A stretch of 60,259 nt of DNA from a virus (lineage: Duplodnaviria; Caudoviricetes): the IMG/VR virus record IMGVR_UViG_3300044497_000019, positions 1 to 60,259 of that record, one strand, 5' to 3'. The notes beneath the pieces are model-generated. The model was not told the origin of the DNA and made no database searches. It saw nothing but the letters and a program-made list of their open reading frames with translations. This document shows positions 13,591-48,127 of the stretch, one piece after another. A program made the translations under genes and the position numbers. Each line of letters starts with the position of its first letter. Positions within the stretch are counted from its first letter, which is position 1.

Positions 13591-13934
13591 ATGGCAATCG
13601 TCAACATCACCGTGAGCAACGATGCCGATTTTTATCAGGCGTTCCAGTACATGACGACGCTGGGAGAGCCGGTTGATCTGACGCTCGTGTCCTCGATGTG
13701 GATGATGCTGCGCCGTCACGCGGAGGACGAGGCGGCGGTGCTGCGCATCGACACCGAGACCGGCGGCATCGTTGTGTACGACGCGCCCAACGGAAAGTTT
13801 TCCGTGCGCATCGCGCAGGATGTTTTGGAGCGTCTGGATGTTGGCGACTACGATCATTCGTTGATCGCGGAAATGATGCTGTACAAGCGGTGCATCTGGA
13901 CCGGCATCCTAACAAACAATGCAGGACCATCACG

Positions 13935-13938
<4 letters not shown>
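13591..13938 (+). CDS. Small fibre-adaptor-like virion protein
   Basis: 'PVDLT', 'YDH.L' pattern; coupled to the next fibre gene. Confidence 0.5.
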
Positions 13939-15857
<1,919 letters not shown>

Positions 15858-30593: not shown

Positions 30594-32192
30594 GTGCGCA
30601 AATTGCGAGAGGATCAGGAATGGGCGTTGGATCAACTCCGCACCCACATCGCCGCCGGTCATCGGCGGATCGTGATGCAGGCACCGACCGGCTACGGAAA
30701 AACAATTCTGGCGTCGGCGGTGGTGAGCGGCGCAATCAAAAAATCGAACCGCGTGCTGTTCACCGTGCCTGCCGTTTCGTTGATCGACCAAACAATGGAA
30801 ATGTTTTACCAGCAAGGCATCACCGATGTCGGTGTGATCCAAGCCCATCACGCAATGACGAATTGGGATCAGCCGGTGCAGATCGCCAGCGTCCAGACGC
30901 TCATGAAACGCACCATGCCGGAATGCGACATCGTGCTGGTGGATGAAGTGCACCGCTGGTTCAATGTGTACACAAAGTGGCTGGACTACACGACCGGCTG
31001 GCAATGCCCGGTGATCGGATTGAGCGCAACGCCGTGGTCGCCAAGTCTCGGCACCTACTTTGCTGGACCGCGCAATTATGCCGACGAGGATCGCAAGCCG
31101 TGCCTGATCGTTGCTTCAACAATTCAGAACCTGATTGATGAAGGCAGGCTCTCGCCGTTCCGCGTGTTCGCTTCCTCGCATCCTGATTTGTCCGACGTGT
31201 CCACGGTGGCGGGCGACTATCACGAGGAACAATTGTCCAAGGCGATGCAACGCGGCACGCTGGTCGGCGATGCCGTCGAGACATGGTTGAGGCTGGGAGA
31301 GAACCGACCAACATTTTGCTACGCTGTGGATCGCGCGCACGCCATGCACCTGAAAGAAAAATTCGAGGCGGCGGGCGTGCCATGCGCCTATCAGGATGGG
31401 AACACGAAGGATGCCGACACGCGCAACAAGGCGAGCGGATTGTGGGTCGATGGGCGCAAGACCATCCGGCGGAAATTCCACGACGGCGAAATCAAGGTGG
31501 TGGTGTCGGTCGGCACGCTCACGACCGGCGTTGATTGGGATGTTCGTTGCCTCTCTATTTGCAGACCAACAAAATCGGACATGCTGTTCACGCAAATTGT
31601 TGGTCGCGGATTGCGCACGGCGGAAGGCAAGGCGGATTGTTTGATCCTCGATCATTCCGACAACCACGCGCGCCTTGGTTTCGTCACCAGCATTGATGTC
31701 AGCTACGAGGGCTTGCACGTCGGCAAAACGCCGATGCACTCCAACAGGAAGGACGACGGCATCCGCCTGCCGAAAGAATGCCCGAAGTGTGCGTTCCTGC
31801 GACCGCCAACGACGCCGACCTGTCCCGCCTGCGGCTTCACCGCCAAGGTGGTGAGTACGGTGGAGGCGCAGGCAGGCGAGTTGCGTGAACTGAAACCGAA
31901 GCCGAAGCCGGTTCCTGTTCCGCGCGATCTGTCATCGACGGTCGAGCGTGAGATATTTTTCCGCGAACTAAAAGCGCACGGCATCGCGAAGGGCTACAAT
32001 GCGAATTGGGCAGCGAACGTGTACCGGGAAAAAATCGGTTCGTTTCCTCCCGCTCACTTCAAGTGGCTCGACCCTGCCGCTGGCGTATCGCCGTGGACGC
32101 AAAACTGGATCACGTCGCGCATGATCGCCTATGCGCGGAGCAAGCGACCGGCACCACGCGTGTTTCCGTACCGACCGCCGACACTGTTGTGA
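30594..32192 (+). CDS. SF2 DEAD/DEAH-box helicase with C-terminal Zn finger
   Basis: 'APTGYGKT', 'DEVH', 'SAT', 'TTGVD', 'QIVGRGLR', 'CPKC...CPACG'. Confidence 0.95.
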   Translation: MRKLREDQEWALDQLRTHIAAGHRRIVMQAPTGYGKTILASAVVSGAIKKSNRVLFTVPAVSLIDQTMEMFYQQGITDVGVIQAHHAMTNWDQPVQIASVQTLMKRTMPECDIVLVDEVHRWFNVYTKWLDYTTGWQCPVIGLSATPWSPSLGTYFAGPRNYADEDRKPCLIVASTIQNLIDEGRLSPFRVFASSHPDLSDVSTVAGDYHEEQLSKAMQRGTLVGDAVETWLRLGENRPTFCYAVDRAHAMHLKEKFEAAGVPCAYQDGNTKDADTRNKASGLWVDGRKTIRRKFHDGEIKVVVSVGTLTTGVDWDVRCLSICRPTKSDMLFTQIVGRGLRTAEGKADCLILDHSDNHARLGFVTSIDVSYEGLHVGKTPMHSNRKDDGIRLPKECPKCAFLRPPTTPTCPACGFTAKVVSTVEAQAGELRELKPKPKPVPVPRDLSSTVEREIFFRELKAHGIAKGYNANWAANVYREKIGSFPPAHFKWLDPAAGVSPWTQNWITSRMIAYARSKRPAPRVFPYRPPTLL

Positions 32193-33589: not shown

Positions 33590-34350
33590 CGTGCACGACG
33601 ACGACGACGCACGATGCCGCCGCCGTGCGTGCACGACAGCACGACGACGCACGACGCGACGGCGAACGTGCACGCACGACGCACGACGACACGCACGACG
33701 ACACGCACGACGACACGCACGACGACACGCACGACGACACGCACGACGACACGCACGACGACACGCACGACGACACGCACGAGCAACGCATGAGGGAAAG
33801 TAGTAGCCGGGTACGCTTTCACTACTTGGGTACTACCCTGACGCACGACACGAGCGACGCCCACCCGACCGATAGCGGTTTCCCGACGTTCTGGGGCGGC
33901 GTAGGCGGCTTCCCCACCCCTCCCCGCTGTACACGTAGCTGGGAGGCTCTAAAGCCGCCAGCGACGCTCCCAGACGCGTTTCCCAGCGTTCCCGTGTCTG
34001 GGATAGTCGGGAGAGCGGGTTTTTGACGCTCGCCAGACGCTCCCAGACGCTCGCCAGCGGCTTTCCCGCGACGACACGCACGAGAGCAGCACGCACACGG
34101 GAGAGCCGCCAGCGACGCTCTCACGACGACGCACGAGTGCACGCACGAGCGACGCACGAGCAGCACGACGACAGCACGGCAGCACGAGAGCAGCACACGA
34201 CGACGCACGACGACGCACACGAGCGACAGCACGAGAGCAGCACACGCACACGACGACGCACGAACGCCCGCCAGCGACGCTCCCAGACGGCGTACGACGC
34301 GAAAGGATCGCACGGCGACGCCGCGACGACGCACAACACAAGAGCAACAC
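33590..34350 (+). repeat. T-poor non-coding region with about 25 co-oriented GCACGA motifs and CGCCAGCGACGCTCCCAG repeats
   Basis: Motifs counted by eye; 18-mer at 33956-33973 and 34269-34286, 14-nt partial at 34107-34120. Confidence 0.85.
33681..33782 (+). repeat. Perfect tandem repeat GCACGACGACAC x8.5
   Basis: Eight full 12-bp units plus GCACGA, read directly. Confidence 0.95.
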
Positions 34351-38737: not shown

Positions 38738-38982
38738 GACATCAATTCCCCGAAGTGCGTTTCGATCAGGTGTTCCAGATGCCAGCGCGGCTCGCTGTCG
38801 TTCGCGCCGACCGCGCTGTAGGTTTCCATCACCTTGTGCACGTGCAGCATGGCGGCGAGTGCACGGTCGCGGCTGGGCTTTTCAGGCGACAGTCGGATTG
38901 CTTGCTGCCACGCCGCGTCGAGTGCGGCGGTGGCAGTCGCGTACAGAGGATGATCCTCGTACAATTCCCATTTGTTGCTCAT
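38734..38982 (-). CDS. Hypothetical protein
   Basis: CACGAAAGGAAACATCATG start. Confidence 0.65.
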   Translation of the reverse strand: MSNKWELYEDHPLYATATAALDAAWQQAIRLSPEKPSRDRALAAMLHVHKVMETYSAVGANDSEPRWHLEHLIETHFGELMS

Positions 38983-39070
38983 GATGTTTCCTTTCGTGAG
39001 CGGGGTTAGCAACGCTCGTGGCGTTGCGTGCTGCGCACCCATCGCACGGGTGCGCAGATGCGCAGCGTCA
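38983..39070 (-). promoter_or_regulatory. Conserved intergenic stem-loop + RBS element (copy A)
   Basis: Stem CTGCGCACCC/GGGTGCGCAG, loop GTGCGAT (minus strand). Confidence 0.75.
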
Positions 39071-39448
39071 GGCAGCGTCGCGCCTGCGGAGCAGACGCAC
39101 GGTGCTGGTGAACAGACCCAGCTTGCCGTTCATCGGAACGGGGATGCACGCTCGCGGATTGGCGAGCACCCATCCGAACGGACCAACAAAGTAGGGCGAC
39201 GGGTGTTGCTCCACGATGTCGATCAAATCAACGACGCCGATTGCAGCGCCGTACACGAGCGACGACGTGTCGAGCGTGATGCCGAAGCGTGCGAGGATGT
39301 CGGCGTCGCGGTCGAGCTTGCGACCGGCGTGGATCAACAGCGGTCCACGATAGTCGGTTTTCCACGAGCGATTTTCGATTGTCTTGTTGCCGTCGATTAT
39401 CAGATGCGCCCACGGCTGTTGGATCGTCAGGGTTTTTATGGGCTTCAT
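39068..39448 (-). CDS. ASCH domain protein
   Basis: 'LTIQQPWA.LI..G.K.IENRSW.T.YRGPLLIHAG'. Confidence 0.9.
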   Translation of the reverse strand: MKPIKTLTIQQPWAHLIIDGNKTIENRSWKTDYRGPLLIHAGRKLDRDADILARFGITLDTSSLVYGAAIGVVDLIDIVEQHPSPYFVGPFGWVLANPRACIPVPMNGKLGLFTSTVRLLRRRDAA

Positions 39449-39660
39449 TTCACCCTCCTGATTTTCGCGACAGCATCGGGCGTCATGCCGTTGAGGACCA
39501 TCGCGCGCAACAGCATCGCCGTTGCGTGCGGGATCGGATGCGCGTTTGATTTCCAGCGACGCGATGTCGTGTCGCTGACATCGAGGAAGCGCGCCGCGCC
39601 CACTTGCGTGAGAGCGAGGCGACCGATGGCGCGTTCGTATTCCTTGCCGTCCATTTTCAT
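39445..39660 (-). CDS. Small HTH DNA-binding protein
   Basis: 'LTQ..AARFL.VS..T.RRW.....IP'. Confidence 0.75.
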   Translation of the reverse strand: MKMDGKEYERAIGRLALTQVGAARFLDVSDTTSRRWKSNAHPIPHATAMLLRAMVLNGMTPDAVAKIRRVK

Positions 39661-39881
39661 GGGTGCTCCGTTGGGTAGATTTCGCAGTTGAACCAGTTCA
39701 CTTGCGGAAACGCTTCCGCGTTGCCGGTCTCGGTCGCGCGCTGTTGACGGTAGCGGTTCTCGTGCAGCGCGCACGACAGGCACAGGATAAGATTTGCGCC
39801 GCCGCCCAATGGGAACAATCGCACGACGCCGTTCGGCATCGCGCACTTGTCGCCATCGCAGTTCCAATTTTTGTTGCTCAT
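39657..39881 (-). CDS. Hypothetical Cys-containing protein
   Basis: GAAAGG RBS; 'NCDG..C', 'LC.SC...E'. Confidence 0.6.
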   Translation of the reverse strand: MSNKNWNCDGDKCAMPNGVVRLFPLGGGANLILCLSCALHENRYRQQRATETGNAEAFPQVNWFNCEIYPTEHP

Positions 39882-40045
39882 GTCATCGCCCTTTCAGCGA
39901 CCGCCTTCGCCTCCAGTCGGCTCACGAACGAGCCGGGGAGACGCAGGCGGATTTCAAGAGTGCGCCCCACTTTCGTGATGCGCGTGATGACCCATCGCCT
40001 TCCGGCGCGCGTCACCTTGTGTTGCTCGCGGAGGACGCGTCTCAT
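39878..40045 (-). CDS. Hypothetical protein
   Basis: GGAGG RBS, coupled. Confidence 0.5.
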   Translation of the reverse strand: MRRVLREQHKVTRAGRRWVITRITKVGRTLEIRLRLPGSFVSRLEAKAVAERAMT

Positions 40046-40383
40046 TGTGCGTCCTCCGTCTGCTCGTGATCGGACCAGTAACCGAAGTCCGACCCGTCGC
40101 CTTCGTGCGCACCGAACCACAGACCCTCAAGGGCAGCGATCAGGTTGAGGCGGTCGATGACATCGCACAACACGGCGCACGCGATTTCGTGATCCGTATC
40201 CTTCGCGTCGGCGCGGTCGATGATTTCGGCGTTCTGCAACGCCTCTGCGGCGAGCGGTTCACCCGGAGCGACGCGCAGCAATTCTGCACCCAGCGCGCGG
40301 AGCAAATCTACCGCGCGCCCGGTTCCGTGTATGACAGTGCCGACGCTGATTGCGCCGCCTGTCGTGTAGGTTTTGTTGCTCAT
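40042..40383 (-). CDS. Conserved hypothetical phage protein
   Basis: 'GTV.HGT', 'FGAHEGDGSDFGYW'; strong RBS. Confidence 0.7.
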   Translation of the reverse strand: MSNKTYTTGGAISVGTVIHGTGRAVDLLRALGAELLRVAPGEPLAAEALQNAEIIDRADAKDTDHEIACAVLCDVIDRLNLIAALEGLWFGAHEGDGSDFGYWSDHEQTEDAQ

Positions 40384-40471
40384 GATTTTTCCTTTCAATG
40401 AGCGGAGTGAAACACCGGATGGCGTTTCGTGCTGCGCTGTCATCGCACGACAGCGCAGAGGCGAAGCGTCA
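40384..40471 (-). promoter_or_regulatory. Conserved intergenic stem-loop + RBS element (copy B)
   Basis: Stem CTGCGCTGTC/GACAGCGCAG, loop GTGCGAT. Confidence 0.75.
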
Positions 40472-42019
40472 GTACACGCCGACATCAATGCCGCGCGCGC
40501 CCCACGGGGCACGTTCGATCAATGACGCGACGGCAACGGAATTGCTTCCGTACACGGCGAACAGAACGGGGCACGCAGGAAGCGGACCCGCGTCGCCGAT
40601 GTGCAGATCGGTGAAGTTGATGATGCACGACGCGTCGTCGTGGAATTCGGCAGCGTAGGCGAACAGCGGCTTCATATCGGTGCCGCCACCGCCGCGCGGA
40701 TCAAACTCCATCTGGTCGCCGGTCGTGTATTCATCGACACGGGTGACGCGCGTGTCACCGTAGACGACGACGACGTGATCAATGATCCCGTCATCTAGCA
40801 TCGCCTGCGCCTCGACATTGATGCAGGCGAGAGCACGATCATCCATCGACCCGGAAGTGTCGATCAGGAACACCGCTTTGTTGATGCCGTCTTTTTGCGA
40901 CGACGGCAAAATCAAACCGCTGTGGGCGAAGCGGCGGTTTGGTCGGTTCCAAGTCTCGATGCGCAACGCGCCTTCCTCGCAGAATTCGCGAAGCTCGTCC
41001 CGCCAGTCGCGAGGCGGATTGTTCGCGCGTTCGATTTCACGCGACACATGGCCCGGCAGTTCTCCGACTGCCTTCGCCATCGACGCTGCGATGCGCACGA
41101 TCCGATCCCACTCGGCATCCTGTGCCGCGATGTCGCCACCGTCAGCGGGGTTGCCTTCGTCGTCGGTCGCGTCGAGCACGTCGCCCCACGAACGCGGGTC
41201 GCCGCTCGCACCCGTCATCGGCGCGTCGTCGTCGTCGCTGCTCCCAGCGTCACCGCCGCCGCCCTTCCCAGCGTCGCCGGTCTCGCCGTCGCCTTCGCCG
41301 CTTCCGTTGCCAGCGTCAGTGTCAGCCTCGCCGTCGTCGCCTTTCCCATCGCCGCTGTCGGCGTCGTCGCCAGCGTCGCTGTCGTCGTCGCTGGCGGCTT
41401 CGTCGTCGCCGTCGCTCTCACTGTCGCTGTCGTCGTCGCTCTCGCCAGCGTCGCTCTCTGTGTCGCCGTCGTCGCTCGTGTCGTCGTCGGCAGCGTCGTC
41501 GCCGGGATCGCTGTCGGCGTTGTCGTCGTCGCTGTCATCCTTGTCGTCGTCGTCGCTCTCACCCGGCTGGGGCGGTGGCGGCGGCGGCGGGCGTCGCTCC
41601 AGTTCACGCATACGGTAGATGTCCTCTGCGGACATGCCCCGGTATTTCGCATCAATGTACCCGTCTGGCGGAAGCTCAAAGCCTTCGTCAATCAGGTCGA
41701 TGTTGATCGCCAGATCACACGCGATGTTCCACTCCTTCGGATCGCGTCCGTTGCGACGCGTCGAGTGGCGGCGCGCGTCGTGTTCGCTCTCGTGAGCTTG
41801 CAGCCCCAGCATCTGCTTGGGCGTCAGCGGCAGAATGAAATCAGGATTGCAGTAGTGACGACGACCATCGGTCGCCATCGTCGGCACTTTGTTTGATACG
41901 ACCGGCTCAACGTTCGACACGAGCACGGCATAAAACCGGCGCTTCACAATCAGTTCGGCGCGGGCATTCATCACGCGGCGCATCGTCTCGGCGTCGCGGT
42001 CGATTTGTTGGTCGCTCAT
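40469..42019 (-). CDS. Metallopeptidase-like + VWA domain protein (DUF2201 type) with acidic linker
   Basis: 'TMATDG', 'HESEH', 'WNIACD.AIN', MIDAS 'DTSGSM', 'GGGGTD', 'FTD'. Confidence 0.85.
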   Translation of the reverse strand: MSDQQIDRDAETMRRVMNARAELIVKRRFYAVLVSNVEPVVSNKVPTMATDGRRHYCNPDFILPLTPKQMLGLQAHESEHDARRHSTRRNGRDPKEWNIACDLAINIDLIDEGFELPPDGYIDAKYRGMSAEDIYRMRELERRPPPPPPPQPGESDDDDKDDSDDDNADSDPGDDAADDDTSDDGDTESDAGESDDDSDSESDGDDEAASDDDSDAGDDADSGDGKGDDGEADTDAGNGSGEGDGETGDAGKGGGGDAGSSDDDDAPMTGASGDPRSWGDVLDATDDEGNPADGGDIAAQDAEWDRIVRIAASMAKAVGELPGHVSREIERANNPPRDWRDELREFCEEGALRIETWNRPNRRFAHSGLILPSSQKDGINKAVFLIDTSGSMDDRALACINVEAQAMLDDGIIDHVVVVYGDTRVTRVDEYTTGDQMEFDPRGGGGTDMKPLFAYAAEFHDDASCIINFTDLHIGDAGPLPACPVLFAVYGSNSVAVASLIERAPWGARGIDVGVY

Positions 42020-42078
42020 GATGTTTCCTTTCGTGAGCATGGGGAAGCCCCGACGCGGGATGCGTCGGGGCATTGATG

Positions 42079-42981
42079 TCAGGCGAACATGCCAGACACG
42101 GCGGCGACGATTTCGTCCGCGCTTTTCTGCACGGACAAACGAGCGTCGTCATTCTTGCGGAGCACGCTCGCGTCCTCTGCGCACAATTCTTTCTGGATGC
42201 GCAGAGTGATCGCGGTCAGCTTCGGGTCGTTCGCGAGGTTGAACGCGGGCAACAATTCGGCGAGGTCGCGAACGTTGTCCACGAGGCTGTCAAAAAAGAA
42301 CTGCCCGCGCTTGCCCGGTTCGCTCGGGTCTTTGTACGCGGCGAGCTTGGTCGCCATGTGCCCGACCGTATCAACAATCTGTTGAGCGGTGTTGCGCATC
42401 GCGTTGCCCAGCACGTTGCTGGTCGTCGCTTCAATCTCACGTCGGATGTCGGCGACAGTATCGGCGTCCAGATCGGCGCGGAAATCTTCCGCGTCGGGGA
42501 ACGGCAGCACCGTCAGCGTGAGTTGGAATTTTTCGCGGATGTCGGACGCCTTCGGATAGTCGCTCTCATTGAACAGTCCGTTGAGGGCGACACGACGTTC
42601 GGCAACGAACCGGGGATAGTCGGCAGCGAAGCGATCCGCAGCGTCGTGGAAGTCCCGCTTGAGGATGCGGAATTCGTCGGTGAATTTTGCGTACAACGAA
42701 TTCGGCAGGATGCGCGGGCCGTCGTCAGCCCACGGCTGCGTCATGCGATAGTGCAGCACGCGCGCCTTGGAAACGATGCCGGTGATTTCCGTCAGGTGAT
42801 CGGCGGCGATCAACAATTTGTTGAAGCGCCCCGCGTCCTGTGCGGCGTTGTAGCGGTCGTTCGTTTCCTTGGTCACGCGCTTGTCGAGCTTGCGTGCGGT
42901 CCACTGTGAAATGTTGACCGACACGAGGACTGCTTTGCGCGACAGCGGGGTGGCGATTTTAGTTGCGGTCTGGGTGCTCAT
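42079..42981 (-). CDS. Conserved phage protein (DUF3150-like)
   Basis: 'LV...IS.WT.RK.D', 'T.PW.D.G.R.LP', 'F...DYP'; lies between AAA and VWA genes. Confidence 0.6.
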   Translation of the reverse strand: MSTQTATKIATPLSRKAVLVSVNISQWTARKLDKRVTKETNDRYNAAQDAGRFNKLLIAADHLTEITGIVSKARVLHYRMTQPWADDGPRILPNSLYAKFTDEFRILKRDFHDAADRFAADYPRFVAERRVALNGLFNESDYPKASDIREKFQLTLTVLPFPDAEDFRADLDADTVADIRREIEATTSNVLGNAMRNTAQQIVDTVGHMATKLAAYKDPSEPGKRGQFFFDSLVDNVRDLAELLPAFNLANDPKLTAITLRIQKELCAEDASVLRKNDDARLSVQKSADEIVAAVSGMFA

Positions 42982-43099
42982 GATTTTTCCTTTCGTGAGC
43001 ATGGAGGAAGCGTCGCTCTCATGAGACGACGGAAACGCGTTCGGCGTTTCGCAATGCTGCACCACGTGAGCGGTGCAGCATCTGCGCAACGTCGGGTTA
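42982..43099 (-). promoter_or_regulatory. Conserved intergenic stem-loop + RBS element (copy D)
   Basis: Stem ATGCTGCACC/GGTGCAGCAT, second hairpin, TCTCATGAGA palindrome at 43017-43026. Confidence 0.65.
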
Positions 43100-44128
43100 C
43101 TGGATCAGCAAGTCTTGGTTGGCGACGGCCCACTTGCCGTAGCAGGCGGTCTCCTTCAACTTCGCATCGCGCGTCGTCATGTCGTGCACGACGAGGACAC
43201 GCGGCTCACGGGGCAGACGGTCGGCATAGCGGAACACCGACGCGATGTTCTGGCGCGTCGCCATGCGCGCGAGGCCCGTGCACACGGCGAAGCGCATCGA
43301 CGGTTCGGTCGGCAGCGGCGCGCTGTCGGGATTGTCGATGATGTCTTGCAGCGATCCGATGGAAGCGTACAGGTCGCAGAACCCATCCAACTCGGCAGCG
43401 TATGCGTCGCCGACGTGAGCGGCGAACAAACGCATCCGATGCGTTCGGGGAGCGTGGACGTATTTGCTGCAACGCGCCCACGAACGCGGAGTGGGGAACG
43501 CGTTTTCATCACCCTTCGGCATGACGTGCAGCAAATTGCGGCGCAGGCGAATGAACGCGACCAACTCGGGCGCGATCTGATTTTTGTTCGCCCAATTGGC
43601 CCACGCGTCAACGTCGGCGGTGACGTACACGTGAGCGAAGCGATTGCGCAACGCGGTCGGCATTTTCTGCGCCGACGCGCGATCACCCACGCGGTTGCCA
43701 GCGGCGATGATTTTCCATCCCGGCAGCAACGTGTAGTCGCCGACGCAACGATCCAACACAAGCTGGAACATAACCGCCATCATCTGCGGCGATCCCGTGT
43801 TGATTTCGTCGAGGAACAAATATCCTTCTGGACCGTCGCGCTCCAACTGCGGCAGTTCATCGGGGACGAACCATCGCGTCCGTCCCGTTTTCATGTCGGG
43901 GACGGGCACGCCGCGAACGTCAACCGGCTCGCGAATGTTGGTACGGAATTCAATAACCTTCCGGCCCGTCTCGGCACCCAACTGTTTCACGATGTCGGAT
44001 TTGCCGACACCGGGCGGACCCCACATCATCACGCTGTCGCCTTCGTCGGTGAGGATGCGAAGCAACTCGGCAGCTTCGGCGATAGTGCACTCGTGTTCCT
44101 TCACGAGCGAATTGCTGGTCGTCGTCAT
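43097..44128 (-). CDS. MoxR-like AAA+ ATPase
   Basis: 'GPPGVGKS', 'LFLDE', 'AAGN', 'ALRNRF', 'PTPRSW'. Confidence 0.9.
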   Translation of the reverse strand: MTTTSNSLVKEHECTIAEAAELLRILTDEGDSVMMWGPPGVGKSDIVKQLGAETGRKVIEFRTNIREPVDVRGVPVPDMKTGRTRWFVPDELPQLERDGPEGYLFLDEINTGSPQMMAVMFQLVLDRCVGDYTLLPGWKIIAAGNRVGDRASAQKMPTALRNRFAHVYVTADVDAWANWANKNQIAPELVAFIRLRRNLLHVMPKGDENAFPTPRSWARCSKYVHAPRTHRMRLFAAHVGDAYAAELDGFCDLYASIGSLQDIIDNPDSAPLPTEPSMRFAVCTGLARMATRQNIASVFRYADRLPREPRVLVVHDMTTRDAKLKETACYGKWAVANQDLLIQ

Positions 44129-44244
44129 GGTGTGTTCCTTTCGTGGAACGTTGGTGGTGGAAACGTTCGCTCTCATGAGACGAACGGAAGCGAGGCGCTT
44201 CATGCTGCGTCGCCATCGCACGGCGGCGCAGATGTGAAACGTCA
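44129..44244 (-). promoter_or_regulatory. Conserved intergenic stem-loop + RBS element (copy C)
   Basis: Stem CTGCGCCGCC/GGCGACGCAG, loop GTGCGAT; TCTCATGAGA at 44171-44180. Confidence 0.75.
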
Positions 44245-44577
44245 GGGTCCGATTGCATCGTCCGCGTCAATGCATCGCTCGATGCACTCGGCGGCTTCGG
44301 GCGTGTGATAGTCGCACCACGATGCGGGGATGGAGAGAATGCAATTGCCGTCAACGTCGGCGGCAAAGTTTGGACCGTCGTCGTCGCGCACGGCGTGGAC
44401 GTATTCGTGACCCTCGTGCATTTGCGATCCGGCGATCCACACGCGGTCGCCGTTCGTGTACAGCACGATGGGGAACGTTCCGCGCCACGCATCGAACGCA
44501 ATGCTTTTGGGATTGCGCGCGTCGGGGTGGCGAACGGTGACGTGGGTGTGAGCGAAGCGGTCGTAAATTTTGGACAT
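44242..44577 (-). CDS. Hypothetical protein
   Basis: CGAAAGGAAC RBS. Confidence 0.65.
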   Translation of the reverse strand: MSKIYDRFAHTHVTVRHPDARNPKSIAFDAWRGTFPIVLYTNGDRVWIAGSQMHEGHEYVHAVRDDDGPNFAADVDGNCILSIPASWCDYHTPEAAECIERCIDADDAIGP

Positions 44578-44605
44578 AGGATGTTCCTTTCGTTTGTTTG
44601 TTTGA

Positions 44606-44788
44606 TCAATCGACGGGCTGGCAGTCGGCGAGGATGAAGCGCATCGTCCTGCCGCTCTTGTCGAGCAGCACGTGGACAATCTCTTTGCCTTTGCGGCGAG
44701 TGATCTTGGCGACAGTGCCGAAGCGATCACCCATCATCCAGCGATCCGTGTACGCGGGGATTTGGACGCGGAAGGTGTAGGTCGTCAT
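44606..44788 (-). CDS. Small SH3-like hypothetical protein
   Basis: CACGAAAGGAAC RBS; 'D.WM.GDRFG.V..I....V.V.LDKSG'. Confidence 0.65.
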   Translation of the reverse strand: MTTYTFRVQIPAYTDRWMMGDRFGTVAKITRRKGKEIVHVLLDKSGRTMRFILADCQPVD

Positions 44789-45294
44789 GGCGTGTTCCTT
44801 TCGTGGAACGTTCGTTGATCACGTTCGATGGAACGTGCGTGCAGGCTGCACGACGAAACGCGAACGGCGCACCCTCTCGGATGCGCCGCTGCGTTTTAGC
44901 TTGCAGTCTATTTGTTTGTTTGTTCGGATCGGCGTTGTCAGGGTCGATCCGTTTCGTTGCGTGCATGGGCGCAACGGGCTGGACAATTGCTTGTCAGCTT
45001 TCAACAGCGTGGCGGGATGGTGGGAGCCTATCGCGCGTTCTGTTGTTGCTCTGTCTGCCGGAACCCACGACGCTTATGTGCCCGAAGGCATCTGCGGCGT
45101 ACCGACGCGTGCATGATGTTTCACATGCTGGGGCGTGCTGCATTGTTTCCCTACTGCGGCCCGTTCGGGCATTCAGGCGGCGCTTTCGCGCTAAACAATC
45201 TCGCAACGCTTGCTTGCTGTCAGACCCTCGCTCTCTATGATTGCCTAGCGTGAGGAACGCCGTCGTCGCGGTGCATCGCTGCAAGCGCGTATGT

Positions 45295-45323
45295 AATATA
45301 GTGCGTCGTGCACTACGGCTCAA
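45295..45323 (-). promoter_or_regulatory. Sigma70-type promoter for leftward early operon
   Basis: Minus strand TTGAGC-17 nt-TATATT with AT-rich upstream sequence. Confidence 0.6.
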
Positions 45324-45690
45324 CGGAAATCTTCCTCAATGATTTCAATAGGTTAGGGCGGAAAAGAGTGCGTCGTGCCCGTAGGGCGTCGTGCTGCACC
45401 CGCTTCCCAGCTCCGAAAAAACACGTGTTTTCCGTGCTGTTTTCCGTCGAGCGAAAACCGTGGAAACCGCTGCGGCAGTAAGCCAACTCATGCGCCGATC
45501 CCGCCGCTTTCCGAGGCGGCGCTTCCCCGACGTTGCTGTCCCGCAGCGGATCGCGGAAAATACAACCCATTTTGCAACCCAGAAAAAAAATTACAACCCG
45601 CCGGGAAACACGGGTTTCCGCTCGTGCGTTTGTTTGCTCCCGTGCGTGGTAGGATGCGCGCGCCGCGATCAACAAATCGGGAGAGCAGCG

Positions 45691-46251
45691 ATGGCAGACG
45701 ACGACAATCCGACAATCATTTCCACGCCCGTGCTCTGCCAATTGTTGATGCTGTCGCGACAGCGGATCGACCAGTTGGTCCACGACGGATTTCTCCGACG
45801 ACACGACAAGGGTCAATTCAGTCTCGTGGAGGCGGTGCAAGGCTACATCCGTTTCCTGCGCGACGACGCGCGACGGTCCTCGATGCACGCCGCCGACAGT
45901 CGGGTGCGCGATGCGCGCGCGCGTGACATCGAGGTGCGGACACAGCAACGATTGGGCAAGCTCGTGCCGCTGGATGTTTTTGAGGAAGTGCTGGACGGTC
46001 TCTGCGGAAAAGTGCGCAGCGAATTCGCTGGACTACCGGCGGCGGTTACGCGAGACCTACCGCAGCGGAGGATAATTGAACGCGATGTTAACGCCCGCCT
46101 CAAGCGGATCGCCGAACACGCCTTGGCAGAAGCCGTACGGATGGAGGCGGATCGCAGCCTTGATGATGCCGTCCGTCGTGATGGAACCGGACGAGTGGGC
46201 GGCAGCGAACAGGACGTATCCATCGACGGCGGCGGTGCCGGGTCCACGTGA
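45691..46251 (+). CDS. Terminase small subunit (Nu1-like)
   Basis: N-terminal HTH, 'V.GYIRFLR', 'G.LV', upstream of GpA. Confidence 0.8.
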   Translation: MADDDNPTIISTPVLCQLLMLSRQRIDQLVHDGFLRRHDKGQFSLVEAVQGYIRFLRDDARRSSMHAADSRVRDARARDIEVRTQQRLGKLVPLDVFEEVLDGLCGKVRSEFAGLPAAVTRDLPQRRIIERDVNARLKRIAEHALAEAVRMEADRSLDDAVRRDGTGRVGGSEQDVSIDGGGAGST

Positions 46252-48127
46252 TCCGTTGCTAACGCCCTACGTGGTCGAACCGGAGCGCGCGATTTCCTCC
46301 GGTGCGTTCCGTCGCGTCGTGATGGTGTTCGGTGCGCAGACCGGCAAGTCGGAAGCGATGCTCGATGTGGCGGGGCAGCGCCTCGACCAGAAACCGGGAC
46401 CGATCCTGTACGTCGGACCAAGCAAACAATTCCTCACCGAACAATTCGAGCCGCGCGTGATGGCGTTGCTCAATGAAGCACCAACCTTGATGGCGAAGGT
46501 GGCGCGCGGCAAGCGCATGACCAAGACGCGCAAGATCGTGGCGGGCGTTCCGTTCCGCCTCGCGCATTCCGGTTCCTCGACCGCACTCAAATCCGATCCG
46601 GCGGTGCTGGCGCTCGTGGACGAATACGATGAAATGCGGGACAACGTGAACAACCAAGGTGGACCGCTGGGGCTTGTCGAGCGACGCGGCGACACCTACG
46701 CGGATTTTGTTTGTGTCGTGACATCGACGCCGAAACGCGGGAGAGTGGCGGCGGTCAAGGACACGCGATCCGGTCTCTACCTCTGGGATGTTGCCGTGAA
46801 TGAGGACATCGAAAGTCCGATCTGGCAACTCTGGCAGCAAGGGACGCGCCATCACTGGACGTGGCCCTGCCCGCATTGCTCCGAATATTTTGTCCCGCGC
46901 TTCAACCTCCTGCGCTATCCGTTGAAGGCGACGCCGCTGGAGGCAGCGCGCGAAACGTTTTTGGAATGTCCAGAGTGCAGCGGCATCATCGAGGACAAAC
47001 ACAAATCCGAAATGAACGCGCGCGGTCGTTATGTTGCTCCCGGTCAGCGCATCGACGTTGCCGGTGTCGTGACCGGCGACGCGCCTGACAGCAAGTCGAT
47101 GTCGTTCTGGGTGTCGGGGTTGGCATCGCCGTTCGTCACCTTCGGCGAGCGTGTCGCCGTGCTCGTGGAGGCGCAGCAATCCGGCGACGACGCGATGGTC
47201 CAACAGGCGATCAACGCGGGCTTCGGTGAACTGTACTCACCGGGCGGCGGCGAGGTGCCAGAGTGGATGGAGATAAAAGAAAAATCCCGACAGGCGACCT
47301 ACGCTCGCGGCGAAGTGCCAGCCGACGCGATGATCCTGACGCTGACGTGCGACGTGCAAAAACATTCCATCCCGTGGGTGATACGCGGATGGGGTCCGCG
47401 CGCCACATCGTGGCTGATCAACTACGGCTACCTCCGTGGCGACACGACGGAGGAAGAAATCTGGAACGCTCTCGGCGATCTTGTCGCCACGCCGGTCGGC
47501 ACGATGCCGATCAAACTGGCATTCATCGACAGCGGCTTCCGTCCCGGCAAGACCGACACGCTCCCGCTCAACCGCGTCTATGAATTCTGTCGGCGGTTCA
47601 TGCGACGCGTGCGACCGACGAAGGGATCGGCGAGCGCAATGCGGACGCCGTTGATCATGAGCAAGATCGAGGTGAGCAGGAAGGATGGCAAGGCAGCGAG
47701 GTACGGATTGGACCTCGTGCGTCTCGACACCGACCATTGGAAAAGTTGGGTGCACGAACGCCTGCGCTGGCCCGATGATCACGTCGGCGGCTGGCATGTG
47801 TTCCGTGGAATTGATGACGACTACTGCCACCAGATCGTTTCCGAAGCGCGGATGAAAAAGCCGACCGGGCGCGTCGAGTGGGTACAACGCAGCCGGGACA
47901 ATCACTTTTTTGACTGCGAGGCGATGCAGGCTGCGGCGGGTCACTTGTTGAACGTCCAGCGCATCCCATTGCCAAGGAAAGAAATTCCGATTAAGGAGGC
48001 GGTCGGCAGGAAGCCGACCACCCCTCCCGAGGTTGCAACACTCGCAGCGCCACCACCACCACCGCAGCAACAAACGCGCGGTCGGAGAGTGCGTCGCGTT
48101 TTCAGGTCGAGCTACCTTGGTGCGTGA
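46163..48127 (+). CDS. Terminase large subunit (lambda GpA family); start codon uncertain
   Basis: 'AQTGKS', 'DEYD', 'STP', 'PCPHC', 'CDVQ', 'IDSG', 'NH.FDC'. Confidence 0.95.
   Translation: MMPSVVMEPDEWAAANRTYPSTAAVPGPRDPLLTPYVVEPERAISSGAFRRVVMVFGAQTGKSEAMLDVAGQRLDQKPGPILYVGPSKQFLTEQFEPRVMALLNEAPTLMAKVARGKRMTKTRKIVAGVPFRLAHSGSSTALKSDPAVLALVDEYDEMRDNVNNQGGPLGLVERRGDTYADFVCVVTSTPKRGRVAAVKDTRSGLYLWDVAVNEDIESPIWQLWQQGTRHHWTWPCPHCSEYFVPRFNLLRYPLKATPLEAARETFLECPECSGIIEDKHKSEMNARGRYVAPGQRIDVAGVVTGDAPDSKSMSFWVSGLASPFVTFGERVAVLVEAQQSGDDAMVQQAINAGFGELYSPGGGEVPEWMEIKEKSRQATYARGEVPADAMILTLTCDVQKHSIPWVIRGWGPRATSWLINYGYLRGDTTEEEIWNALGDLVATPVGTMPIKLAFIDSGFRPGKTDTLPLNRVYEFCRRFMRRVRPTKGSASAMRTPLIMSKIEVSRKDGKAARYGLDLVRLDTDHWKSWVHERLRWPDDHVGGWHVFRGIDDDYCHQIVSEARMKKPTGRVEWVQRSRDNHFFDCEAMQAAAGHLLNVQRIPLPRKEIPIKEAVGRKPTTPPEVATLAAPPPPPQQQTRGRRVRRVFRSSYLGA

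Follow-up and report, generated by a model that had tools for sequence, protein, structure and literature searches.

The 60,259-bp stretch of DNA analysed here, referred to as the window, is the whole of an assembly that consists of a single contig (IMG/VR virus record IMGVR_UViG_3300044497_000019) with a G+C content of 61.6%. Matches to PHROGs families mark it as a tailed phage, namely those to a terminase large subunit (46076-48127), a portal protein, a head protease and tail proteins. Further matches were obtained for a helicase (30594-32192), an exonuclease and a ParB-like protein. An operon on the minus strand carries, in several of its spacers, copies of a structured intergenic element that is the subject of this work. 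The element is a structure in the sense-strand mRNA, located between the stop codon of one gene and the start codon of the next. To judge from a comparison of sequences across the family, it is a two-state element in which two mutually exclusive helices, P1 and P2, are both selected. This two-state property is the part considered new.

The first gene of the operon starts at 44788. The operon ends at a canonical intrinsic terminator at 36674-36636, a 17-bp stem followed by TTTTTTGG, which is the only strong terminator between 36500 and 46200. The genes are presumably carried on one transcript that reaches from about 45300 to this terminator. The candidate promoter, TTGAGC-17-TATATT at 45295-45323 on the minus strand, is the sole sigma-70-like match in the same interval and a weak one (1 found vs 1.9 expected). 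The encoded proteins include a 60-aa protein (phrog_5546), a 111-aa protein (stop codon TGA at 44244-44242), a MoxR/AAA_5 ATPase (phrog_1297, 44128-43097), a DUF3150-like protein (42981-42079) and a DUF2201 metallopeptidase/VWA protein (42019-40469). These are followed by a block of five small genes (40383-39068) that are joined by overlapping ATGA stop/start codons. The last gene of the block (39448-39068) was assigned an ASCH domain by domain search, which we take to be a predicted RNA-binding fold. The next gene is located at 38982-38734, with more small genes beyond.

Three strong copies of the element (39001-39073, 40402-40474 and 44175-44247) and a divergent fourth (43024-43097) are found on the minus strand of the window. 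The unit is composed, in this order, of the stop codon, a 7-bp outer stem (P1), a 3x2 internal loop, an inner hairpin of 8-10 bp, a second hairpin (P2), the ribosome-binding site (RBS) and the start codon. A first-pass annotation, made from the sequence alone, had described four homologous minus-strand spacers, each beginning at the stop codon of the upstream gene and containing an outer stem of about 7 bp, a small internal loop and an inner 10-bp stem. All of these parts were found again by reading and by folding, the spacers beginning with TGACG at 39070, 40471 and 44244 and with TAACC at 43099. The four spacers do belong to one family, although the copy at 43024-43097 is a divergent member with a score of 16.2 bits vs 55-65 bits for the others. 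Scores refer to the covariance model R1 (69 positions, 17 pairs), which was built from a seed alignment of 35 copies.

Spacer 1 (38980-39070) extends from the TGA of the ASCH gene (39070-39068) to the ATG at 38982-38980 and has a fold z-score of -3.62. Its element (58.4 bits, E 1.6e-16) comprises the outer stem CGCTGCG/CGCAACG (39067-39061 with 39028-39022), the internal loop CAT/CA and an inner stem at 39057-39031. The second hairpin, GCAACGC-CACGA-GCGTTGC at 39027-39009, shares the 3' arm of the outer stem. Spacer 2 (40381-40471, z -2.96) connects the TGA of the DUF2201 gene (40471-40469) with the ATG at 40383-40381. Here, the element (64.7 bits, E 1.6e-18) has the outer stem CGCTTCG/CGAAACG with a single C·A mismatch, an inner stem at 40458-40432 and the second hairpin GAAACGCC-ATCC-GGTGTTTC at 40428-40409. 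One low-depth contig of sequencing run X23 shows an additional A at 40404, in the tail of this spacer downstream of the second hairpin. Spacer 4 (44126-44244, z -2.79) lies between the TGA of the 111-aa gene and the ATG of the ATPase gene (44128-44126). Its element (54.9 bits, E 2.1e-15) consists of the outer stem CGTTTCA/TGAAGCG, an inner stem at 44231-44205 with a single C·A mismatch and the second hairpin GAAGCG-CCT-CGCTTC at 44201-44187. Spacer 3 (42979-43099, z -4.66), between the TAA of the ATPase gene (43099-43097) and the ATG of the DUF3150-like gene (42981-42979), contains the divergent copy (E 0.0056). The architecture is kept in this copy, including the second hairpin GAAACGC-CGAAC-GCGTTTC at 43050-43032, and the sequence of the inner stem differs (TGCTGCACC...GGTGCAGCA). 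All four spacers thus fold better than their shuffled counterparts (z about -2.8 to -4.7), whereas the element-free spacer at 44572-44612 is unstructured (z 0.31).

The pattern CTGCG-N5-GTGCGAT-N5-CGCAG is present exactly at 39031-39057, 40432-40458 and 44205-44231. Its chance expectation is 0.84, and at least four matches were reached in none of 100 shuffles; a fourth match at 34297-34323 contains three mismatches and was rejected as unrelated. The loop GTGCGAT with compensatory stems, as proposed at first pass, therefore stands in three exact copies, with the qualification that the third stem (CCGCC/GGCGA) includes one C·A mismatch. RNAfold lengthens the inner stem into this loop by G·U and U-A pairs, leaving a GCG triloop. 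In a separate repeat search, the three copies came out as one family of 53 nt, with identities of 83% and 77% relative to the reference, and the RBS/start block was found independently. With filters turned off, R1 returned the mirror images of the strong copies at 19-31 bits and nothing further that was convincing in the window.

To characterize the distribution of the element, cultured phages, viral contigs and metagenomes were searched. Among cultured phages (INPHARED, blastn), no relatives of the window were found; the seven records obtained cover at most 3% each, and the element as query gave just three spurious short matches. The ATPase reaches at most 35% identity among the matches listed for cultured phages, where the gene is annotated as N4 gp24-like. 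As a protein query it identified 11 IMG/VR loci (64-83% protein identity), and in L005, L010/L011 and L014 the same element occupies the spacer before the ATPase gene with a different apical stem and loop. Pattern scans yielded 27 viral loci, 61 metagenome loci and three Bradyrhizobium genome contigs in addition to one chance match. A loop-specific pattern hit four IMG/VR loci, all of them by chance, as the N5 arms were fully complementary in none. A looser pattern hit at least 118 stretches in IMG/VR, mostly by chance in coding DNA, and only those with a stem of at least nine pairs and an upstream TTTCG were kept. Five loci (L036, L064, L075, L090 and L134, the latter a Brachymonas metagenome-assembled genome) were judged to be chance matches and dropped before the seed alignment, since their arms inside the CTGCGC and GCGCAG anchors lack complementarity and a second hairpin and RBS context are missing.

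When applied to 29 of about 148 loci (pattern matches and ATPase relatives), R1 produced 60 matches at E ≤1e-7, 51 of them distinct. Extended to 82 of 209 loci, it produced 147 matches, 135 of them distinct. The family, with the consensus TGACGTTTCG...CGAAGCGCCA, is represented by 134 distinct copies, which come from IMG/VR viral contigs, from soil metagenomes and from three Bradyrhizobium genomes. It is abundant in uncultured phages of soil and sediment. The element region of B. elkanii is also present as an IMG/VR viral contig (the L136 region equals L147). A PHROGs search of ten open reading frames (ORFs) around the Bradyrhizobium copies gave a single match, an HNH endonuclease in L135, so that the searches do not show these regions to be prophages. 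The putative host link concerns three Bradyrhizobium contigs with relatives of the element, not this phage itself. The family is absent from Rfam: release 15 gave no match at the gathering score across the whole window, and at E ≤10 only four weak matches between 36500 and 46200, none of which is located at an element. No description of the family was found in the literature by word searches, which cannot exclude one.

The fold is supported by strong covariation among the relatives. For the 51 distinct copies, 96.1% of the cells are paired vs 83.2% after shuffling, with both-sided changes at 14 of 17 pairs. For 135 copies, the values are 96.5% and 84.6%, with both-sided changes at 16 of 17 pairs (249 cells). 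None of 500 shuffles was as good in either set. Sliding the partners by 1-3 columns in the larger set leaves only 28-48% of the cells paired; alignments fitted to the model favour structure somewhat, but the slid controls and the both-sided changes are still far apart. The hairpin contains 14-18 canonical pairs in 48 of the 51 copies in addition to the 3x2 internal loop and up to 2-3 extra basal pairs. Its inner stem has 8-10 pairs in 41 copies, and three nucleotides of the internal loop (ACA, CCT, ACC and others) face two on the opposite side (NA in 50 of 51).

Several features indicate that the fold functions as RNA of the coding strand. G·U pairs exceed A·C combinations by 74 to 2 in the 51-copy set and by 191 to 19 in the larger set, and one pair of the outer stem is U·G in 123 of 135 copies. 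Tetraloops close 25 of the 51 hairpins, 10 of them of the UNCG or GNRA type. This bears on the idea that the element is a hairpin site in single-stranded DNA, comparable to integron attC, REP/RAYT or an IS200-type end, that a recombinase uses to move cassettes. The strand-specific fold and the arrays of short ORFs and hairpins, which resemble cassette arrays, would suit such a site. Like attC, the element is an imperfect palindrome that follows each short cassette ORF, with a conserved base and a variable apex. An attC site, however, folds as the single-stranded bottom strand and carries the inverse core RYYYAAC and the core GTTRRRY. The element folds on the mRNA sense strand, its consensus lacks such attC-like cores, and the folded strand is always the coding strand, with a unit that spans exactly from stop codon to RBS. 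UNCG and GNRA loops and frequent G·U pairs are features of RNA. Furthermore, neither an integrase nor an HUH gene was seen beside the arrays, for which no systematic search was made. A DNA hairpin site is therefore regarded as extremely unlikely.

The apical loop is the most variable part of the element, with 36 different loops among the first 51 distinct copies. The covariation around an invariant loop that was reported at first pass is confirmed for the compensatory stems, but the invariance of the loop is limited to this genome. Within a contig, apical parts resemble each other somewhat more than they do between contigs (0.46 vs 0.34); L145, for example, has ATCACGGT in three copies, and L014 has GAAAG in three. 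The more divergent members carry an entirely different inner hairpin sequence and keep the arms GUUUCG, CGAAGC and GCUUCA. These observations are relevant to a possible role as the binding site of a phage RNA-binding protein, such as a boxB/N-like antiterminator or a translational operator, in which the apex would be read by a phage-specific factor. An apex that is identical in the three window copies above 5 bp that differ, the within-contig similarity and the presence of an ASCH-domain gene in the operon are all compatible with this, and small hairpins in early phage transcripts are known from lambda-type nut sites. The function of boxB depends on a defined loop and the N protein, and nut-type sites occur once per operon, not behind each gene block. 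In contrast, the loop of the element is its least conserved part, differs inside most relatives and is in many cases a generic stable tetraloop, and the element recurs after each gene block. The variability of the loop across relatives thus argues against the boxB-like recognition suggested at first pass, as does the exchange of entire inner hairpins in divergent members. The ASCH gene is also present in L008, which is without the element, and no candidate protein co-occurs with the family among the loci collected. A protein-binding site of this kind is considered very unlikely.

Of the 134 distinct copies, 120 have an upstream ORF of 30 codons or more that terminates at the element. In 60 of these the stop codon directly adjoins P1 (gap of 0 nt), and in a further 24 the two are 1 nt apart. 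In the 51-copy set, the gap is 0 nt in 28 of 48 copies, and the stop codon is TGA in 38 of 48. P1 is often longer by two pairs that take in the stop codon. A Shine-Dalgarno sequence and a start codon follow the element, the start typically 30-45 nt beyond the 3' arm. The competing hairpin noted at first pass is present and covaries: the 3' arm of P1 pairs with the next 5-8 bases to form P2, which ends a few bases before the next Shine-Dalgarno sequence. This hairpin on the shared arm is present in 122 of 134 copies vs 26% of tail-shuffled controls. In the 51-copy set, the corresponding values are 44 of 51 vs 30%, with a mean energy of -10.6 vs -5.9 kcal/mol. The shared arm departs from GAAGC in 11 copies (GAAAC, GCAAC, GAAGG, AGAGC and GAUGC), among them window copy 1 with CGCTGCG, CGCAACG and GCGTTGC. 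The P2 partner matches the variant arm in 10 of these 11 copies, and mostly the 5' arm does so, too. This three-way compensation between the 5' arm of P1, the shared arm and the P2 partner indicates that both folds are under selection.

A generic structured spacer, such as a barrier against 3' exonucleases, a block to Rho loading or a terminator/attenuator without a U-tract, would leave the selection on two exclusive helices and the conserved arm sequences unexplained. Nearly the whole spacer is paired in either fold, as such a role would predict, and in L005, L010 and L014 the copy before the ATPase gene has a separate T-tract hairpin behind it. Behind the element itself there is no T-tract, and the canonical terminator of the operon is located elsewhere. 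This explanation is hence thought to be unlikely. Between 36500 and 46200, neither a sigma-70 promoter nor an intrinsic terminator was found at any element. Specifically, an intrinsic terminator was rejected because the inner stem is followed by CA-CGAAGCG and not by a T run, and reading TTGACG at the stop codon as a sigma-70 -35 box was rejected because no -10 box follows. SECIS or readthrough was dismissed as well, since TAA and TAG are also used (10 of 48) and the frame after the stop codon at 40471 does not join the next gene. The window encodes no giant virion RNA polymerase (its longest ORF has 988 aa), which makes N4-type hairpin promoters unlikely.

The element probably controls cutting, stability or translation of the long mRNA. 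The reading that is favoured here, tentatively and with less than even confidence, is that of an RNase III-type processing site that would leave a protective hairpin on each product, by analogy to the early processing signals of phage T7. P1 and the inner hairpin would form the substrate of a double-strand-specific endonuclease, most likely host RNase III, with a single cut at the internal loop or in the 3' arm, as in the T7 signals. The upstream block of cistrons would then end in the stable inner hairpin, which would guard its 3' end, and the freed 3' arm would become the start of the downstream block, where it could fold into P2 from its second base. A P2 hairpin at the very 5' end would shield the new 5' monophosphate from RNase E-type decay and leave the RBS free. 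As a result, the operon would be divided into blocks that are separately stable and separately translated, and inside a block the genes are joined by overlapping ATGA stop/start codons instead. Such a model gives every part of the element a task and would explain why both helices covary.

RNase III cleaves one strand at internal loops and thereby yields 3' hairpins that stabilise the RNA, according to the accessible part of PMC3867540; the same excerpt mentions five signals of this type in the T7 early precursor of roughly 7000 nt and an idealised RNase III substrate of 22 bp. Like the T7 signals (R0.3-R1.3), the elements are repeated, irregular intercistronic hairpins of a long phage mRNA with two stems and an asymmetric internal loop. 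A signal of the T7 type spans about two helical turns and has its internal loop where the cut is made. The elements lie on the coding strand, between a stop codon and the next start codon, in an operon that is presumably a single transcript. In T7, one-strand cleavage leaves a stabilising 3' hairpin (PMC3867540, as far as its text was available). Unlike the T7 signals, to which it is unrelated in sequence, the element has a shorter helix of 14-18 pairs, a stop codon that is built into the stem and a covarying alternative hairpin on the shared 3' arm. We know of no such alternative hairpin reusing the 3' arm in T7.

The 14-18-pair irregular helix with its asymmetric internal loop and the start of P2 at base 2 of the freed arm are in favour of processing. 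Several points weigh against it. Among the sequencing runs listed as containing the sequence, none is an RNA run. The 14-18 canonical pairs fall short of the idealised 22-bp substrate given in the excerpt of PMC3867540. The same gene junction has an element in some relatives and none in others, so the element is dispensable for the flanking genes. The tight abutment of the stop codon is not needed for processing and would suit a switch actuated by ribosomes at least equally well. Finally, the protection of RNA by a 5' hairpin is knowledge from E. coli and is assumed to apply to the host of this phage.

The stop codon leads to this second explanation, the main rival, which is possible but doubtful. 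A ribosome that terminates at the upstream stop codon might melt the 5' arm of P1, and the freed 3' arm would then form P2, resulting in translational coupling. P2 could conceivably sequester its own 3' arm (..CUUCA), which would otherwise be paired with the next Shine-Dalgarno sequence GGAG. Under such a scheme the downstream gene would, perhaps, be translated only after the upstream gene. In the same doubtful vein, the flip from P1 to P2 may license translation or decay protection of the next gene about 100 nt away, and the apex GTGCGAT may add the input of a phage-specific protein. The stop codon abuts P1 with a gap of 0-1 nt in 84 of 120 copies and can itself pair in the extension of P1, and P1 and P2 are mutually exclusive and both covary, all of which would be expected of a switch. 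A two-state folding test covered 42 of the 51 copies, the other nine having no start codon assigned. The mean probability that the region from Shine-Dalgarno sequence to start codon is unpaired was 0.54 when P1 was forced and 0.62 when the 5' arm was blocked. Blocking the arm raised accessibility in 18 copies and lowered it in 5, and the other 19 were similar in both states. Predicted shifts were largest (0.26 to 0.82 and 0.39 to 0.77) for copies of L010 and L014 with ACUUCA-N5-GGAG. The support that this test lends to a switch is modest: the average predicted effect is small, and there is none in the three strong window copies (0.66/0.66, 0.67/0.65 and 0.44/0.48). In addition, the 4-bp CUUC:GGAG pairing is weak, and a switch assigns no role to the long, stable inner hairpin.

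The first-pass annotation had further proposed that the elements divide the operon into cassettes, and the gene content of relatives does differ exactly at elements. From stop to start, the element of L097 (2305) is nearly identical to that of L014 (10204), and the ORFs on both sides are unrelated. Homologues of small genes (clusters c7, c8, c9, c11, c12, c13, c15, c20 and c23) appear between elements in differing order and context. According to rough gene calls, the ASCH gene adjoins the ATPase gene in L008 and L015 and is located downstream of the DUF2201 gene in the window. Dense arrays were found in metagenomes, namely 10 elements in 4.4 kb in L152, 7 in 3.8 kb in L205 and 6 in 3.8 kb in L208, with ORFs of about 40-290 codons in between. 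At the ATPase/DUF3150 junction, a hairpin is missing in L005, L008 and L012, and L006 carries a terminator-like one with a T-tract. Another conserved type (..CACTGAG-GC-rich hairpin-CTCACAGTG..) occurs there in L009, L010 and L014, with one or two small hairpins behind it. Spacer modules are thus swapped at one orthologous junction. Since near-identical elements connect unrelated genes, the elements mark cassette boundaries as well.

The ~85-bp unit could primarily be DNA that is kept as homology for the exchange of small genes between co-infecting phages, with the RNA fold being secondary. Such a recombination linker would resemble the PeSL motifs, which mediate shuffling in T4-type regions as described in the available portions of PMC2839356 and PMC4122927. 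The near-identical element of L097 and L014 between unrelated genes, the small genes bounded by elements in differing orders and the dense arrays are in line with a linker. Homology alone, though, would not account for pairing that persists despite 249 both-sided changes, for G·U exceeding A·C by 10:1 on one strand or for three-way covariation. Mosaic joints of phages lie at gene boundaries anyway, so their coincidence with an element is expected, and relatives also differ in gene content at element-free junctions (L006, L008). Four DNA runs containing part of the sequence (X16, X19, X21 and X23) showed no recombination product or joint at an element and no informative stem variants, with only short low-depth contigs available. 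For the latter reasons, exchange is treated as a consequence and not as the primary function: the ~85-nt unit with its own stop codon, RBS and start context would serve as a portable joint for cassette exchange as a side effect. A role as a linker in the first place is rather unlikely, and the recombination sites suggested at first pass stand only as cassette boundaries in unrelated contexts. PeSLs are also small conserved motifs beside small variable ORFs in unrelated contexts, to which insertions, deletions and swaps map (PMC2839356 and PMC4122927, in the parts at hand). A PeSL, however, combines a sigma-70-like promoter with a terminator stem-loop, whereas the element is internal to the mRNA and reaches from stop codon to RBS. 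The lack of promoter-like and terminator-like sites at the window elements thus separates them from the PeSLs of T4.

The nearest analogue in layout is the SAS/ESAS of Cluster K mycobacteriophages. As described in the accessible sections of PMC3203893 and PMC12699233, SAS is a conserved RBS block that precedes the starts of some non-structural genes in one orientation, and in about half of the cases imperfect inverted repeats around a variable spacer (ESAS) are located directly upstream. Its function was still called unverified in 2025 in the same sections. SAS is the 13-bp motif GGGATAGGAGCCC, positioned 3-8 bp before start codons (PMC3203893, in part). In the window, this role is taken by the RBS block GCTCACGAAAGGAAA-ATCATGAGC, which has the same position but a different sequence. 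By reading of the motif, the 17-bp imperfect inverted repeats of ESAS with their 4-13-bp spacer are analogous in layout to the arms of the element around a 3-8-nt loop. The two systems differ in sequence and in host phylum. The element is shown to covary in its base pairs, to abut a stop codon and to have a second exclusive helix, none of which appears in the portions of the ESAS descriptions that were accessible.

Repeated intergenic stem-loops are known from a few phage groups, namely the RNase III sites of T7, the PeSLs of T4 and the ESAS of mycobacteriophages, and no mechanism is known for ESAS. The element adds a family that is defined by sequence and can be searched with a covariance model. 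Its unusually clear signature, two exclusive selected helices anchored on a stop codon, makes the function of the linker directly testable with a small reporter. For synthetic operons it offers a compact natural part with which genes can be insulated or coupled, and it provides a marker for mapping the shuffling of small accessory genes among phages. If the switch were true, soil phages would possess a portable stop-to-start coupler by which unrelated small genes could be inserted into an operon with linked expression.

Besides the element, the spacers contain further modules. Spacers 3 and 4 have a third hairpin, CGTCGTCTCATGAGAGCGACG at 43011-43031 and GTTCGTCTCATGAGAGCGAAC at 44165-44185 (minus strand, by folding), with the common core GTCTCATGAGAGCGA. 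This 15-nt core occurs exactly twice in the window, and two or more occurrences at two mismatches were seen in 3 of 100 shuffles. The motif GAAAGGAA is found 13 times in the window vs 1.04 expected (0 of 100 shuffles), eight times on the minus strand between 38371 and 44802. At four junctions, the RBS block has the form GCTCA-CGAAAGGAAA.ATCA-TGAGC, a predicted hairpin whose loop holds the Shine-Dalgarno sequence and whose stem includes the start codon. The block at 38977-39001 (minus strand), GCTCA-CGAAAGGAAACATCA-TGAGC, is an exact 25-nt repeat with three copies vs 0 expected; its 5-bp stem holds UG of the start codon and the next three bases (AGC). A variant, GCTCATTGAAAGGAAAAATCATGAGC, is located at 40378-40403 on the same strand, and the remaining two blocks precede the DUF3150-like gene (42976-43000) and the DUF2201 gene (42014-42038), the latter preceded only by a simple hairpin. 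A second type of block, GTTCC-ACGAAA-GGAAC, in which the Shine-Dalgarno sequence GGAA is itself paired, is found on the minus strand at 44134-44149 before the ATPase gene and at 44794-44809 before the first gene of the operon.

Two simpler hairpins on the minus strand that had been pointed out at first pass were verified by folding. The 10-bp hairpin GCCCCGACGC-ATCCC-GCGTCGGGGC at 42047-42071 is located at the DUF3150-like/DUF2201 junction (z -3.95), and a long hairpin at 44866-44898 is part of the leader before the first operon gene at 44788 (z -4.83). Neither is a member of the family. For the former, R1 reports merely 7.6 bits on the plus strand (42016-42070, E 3.1), and for the latter a partial match of 10.7 bits at 44867-44886.

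A number of further features of the window were noted. Three small genes open with the identical 12 bases ATGAGCAACAAA, encoding M-S-N-K, at 38980-38969, 40381-40370 and 39879-39868 (minus strand). Two of them follow an element, and one is located at an ATGA overlap without an element. The divergent operons of the minus strand and of the terminase are separated by a 1.2-kb non-coding stretch (44800-46075) with several hairpins and CAAA-rich tracts. The DUF2201 protein includes a long low-complexity insert rich in Asp, Ser and Gly (41285-41562), which is the source of the only blastn matches to haloviruses and a Microbacterium phage and of weak mir-598 noise in Rfam. On the plus strand, a perfect 12-bp tandem repeat, ACGCACGACGAC, is present in about nine copies at 33655-33798. 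Two runs of 9-bp periodic repeats (GGCGCGACC-like) at 14076-14646, within a 719-aa ORF (13698-15857), look like the collagen-type Gly-X-Y repeats of a tail fibre.

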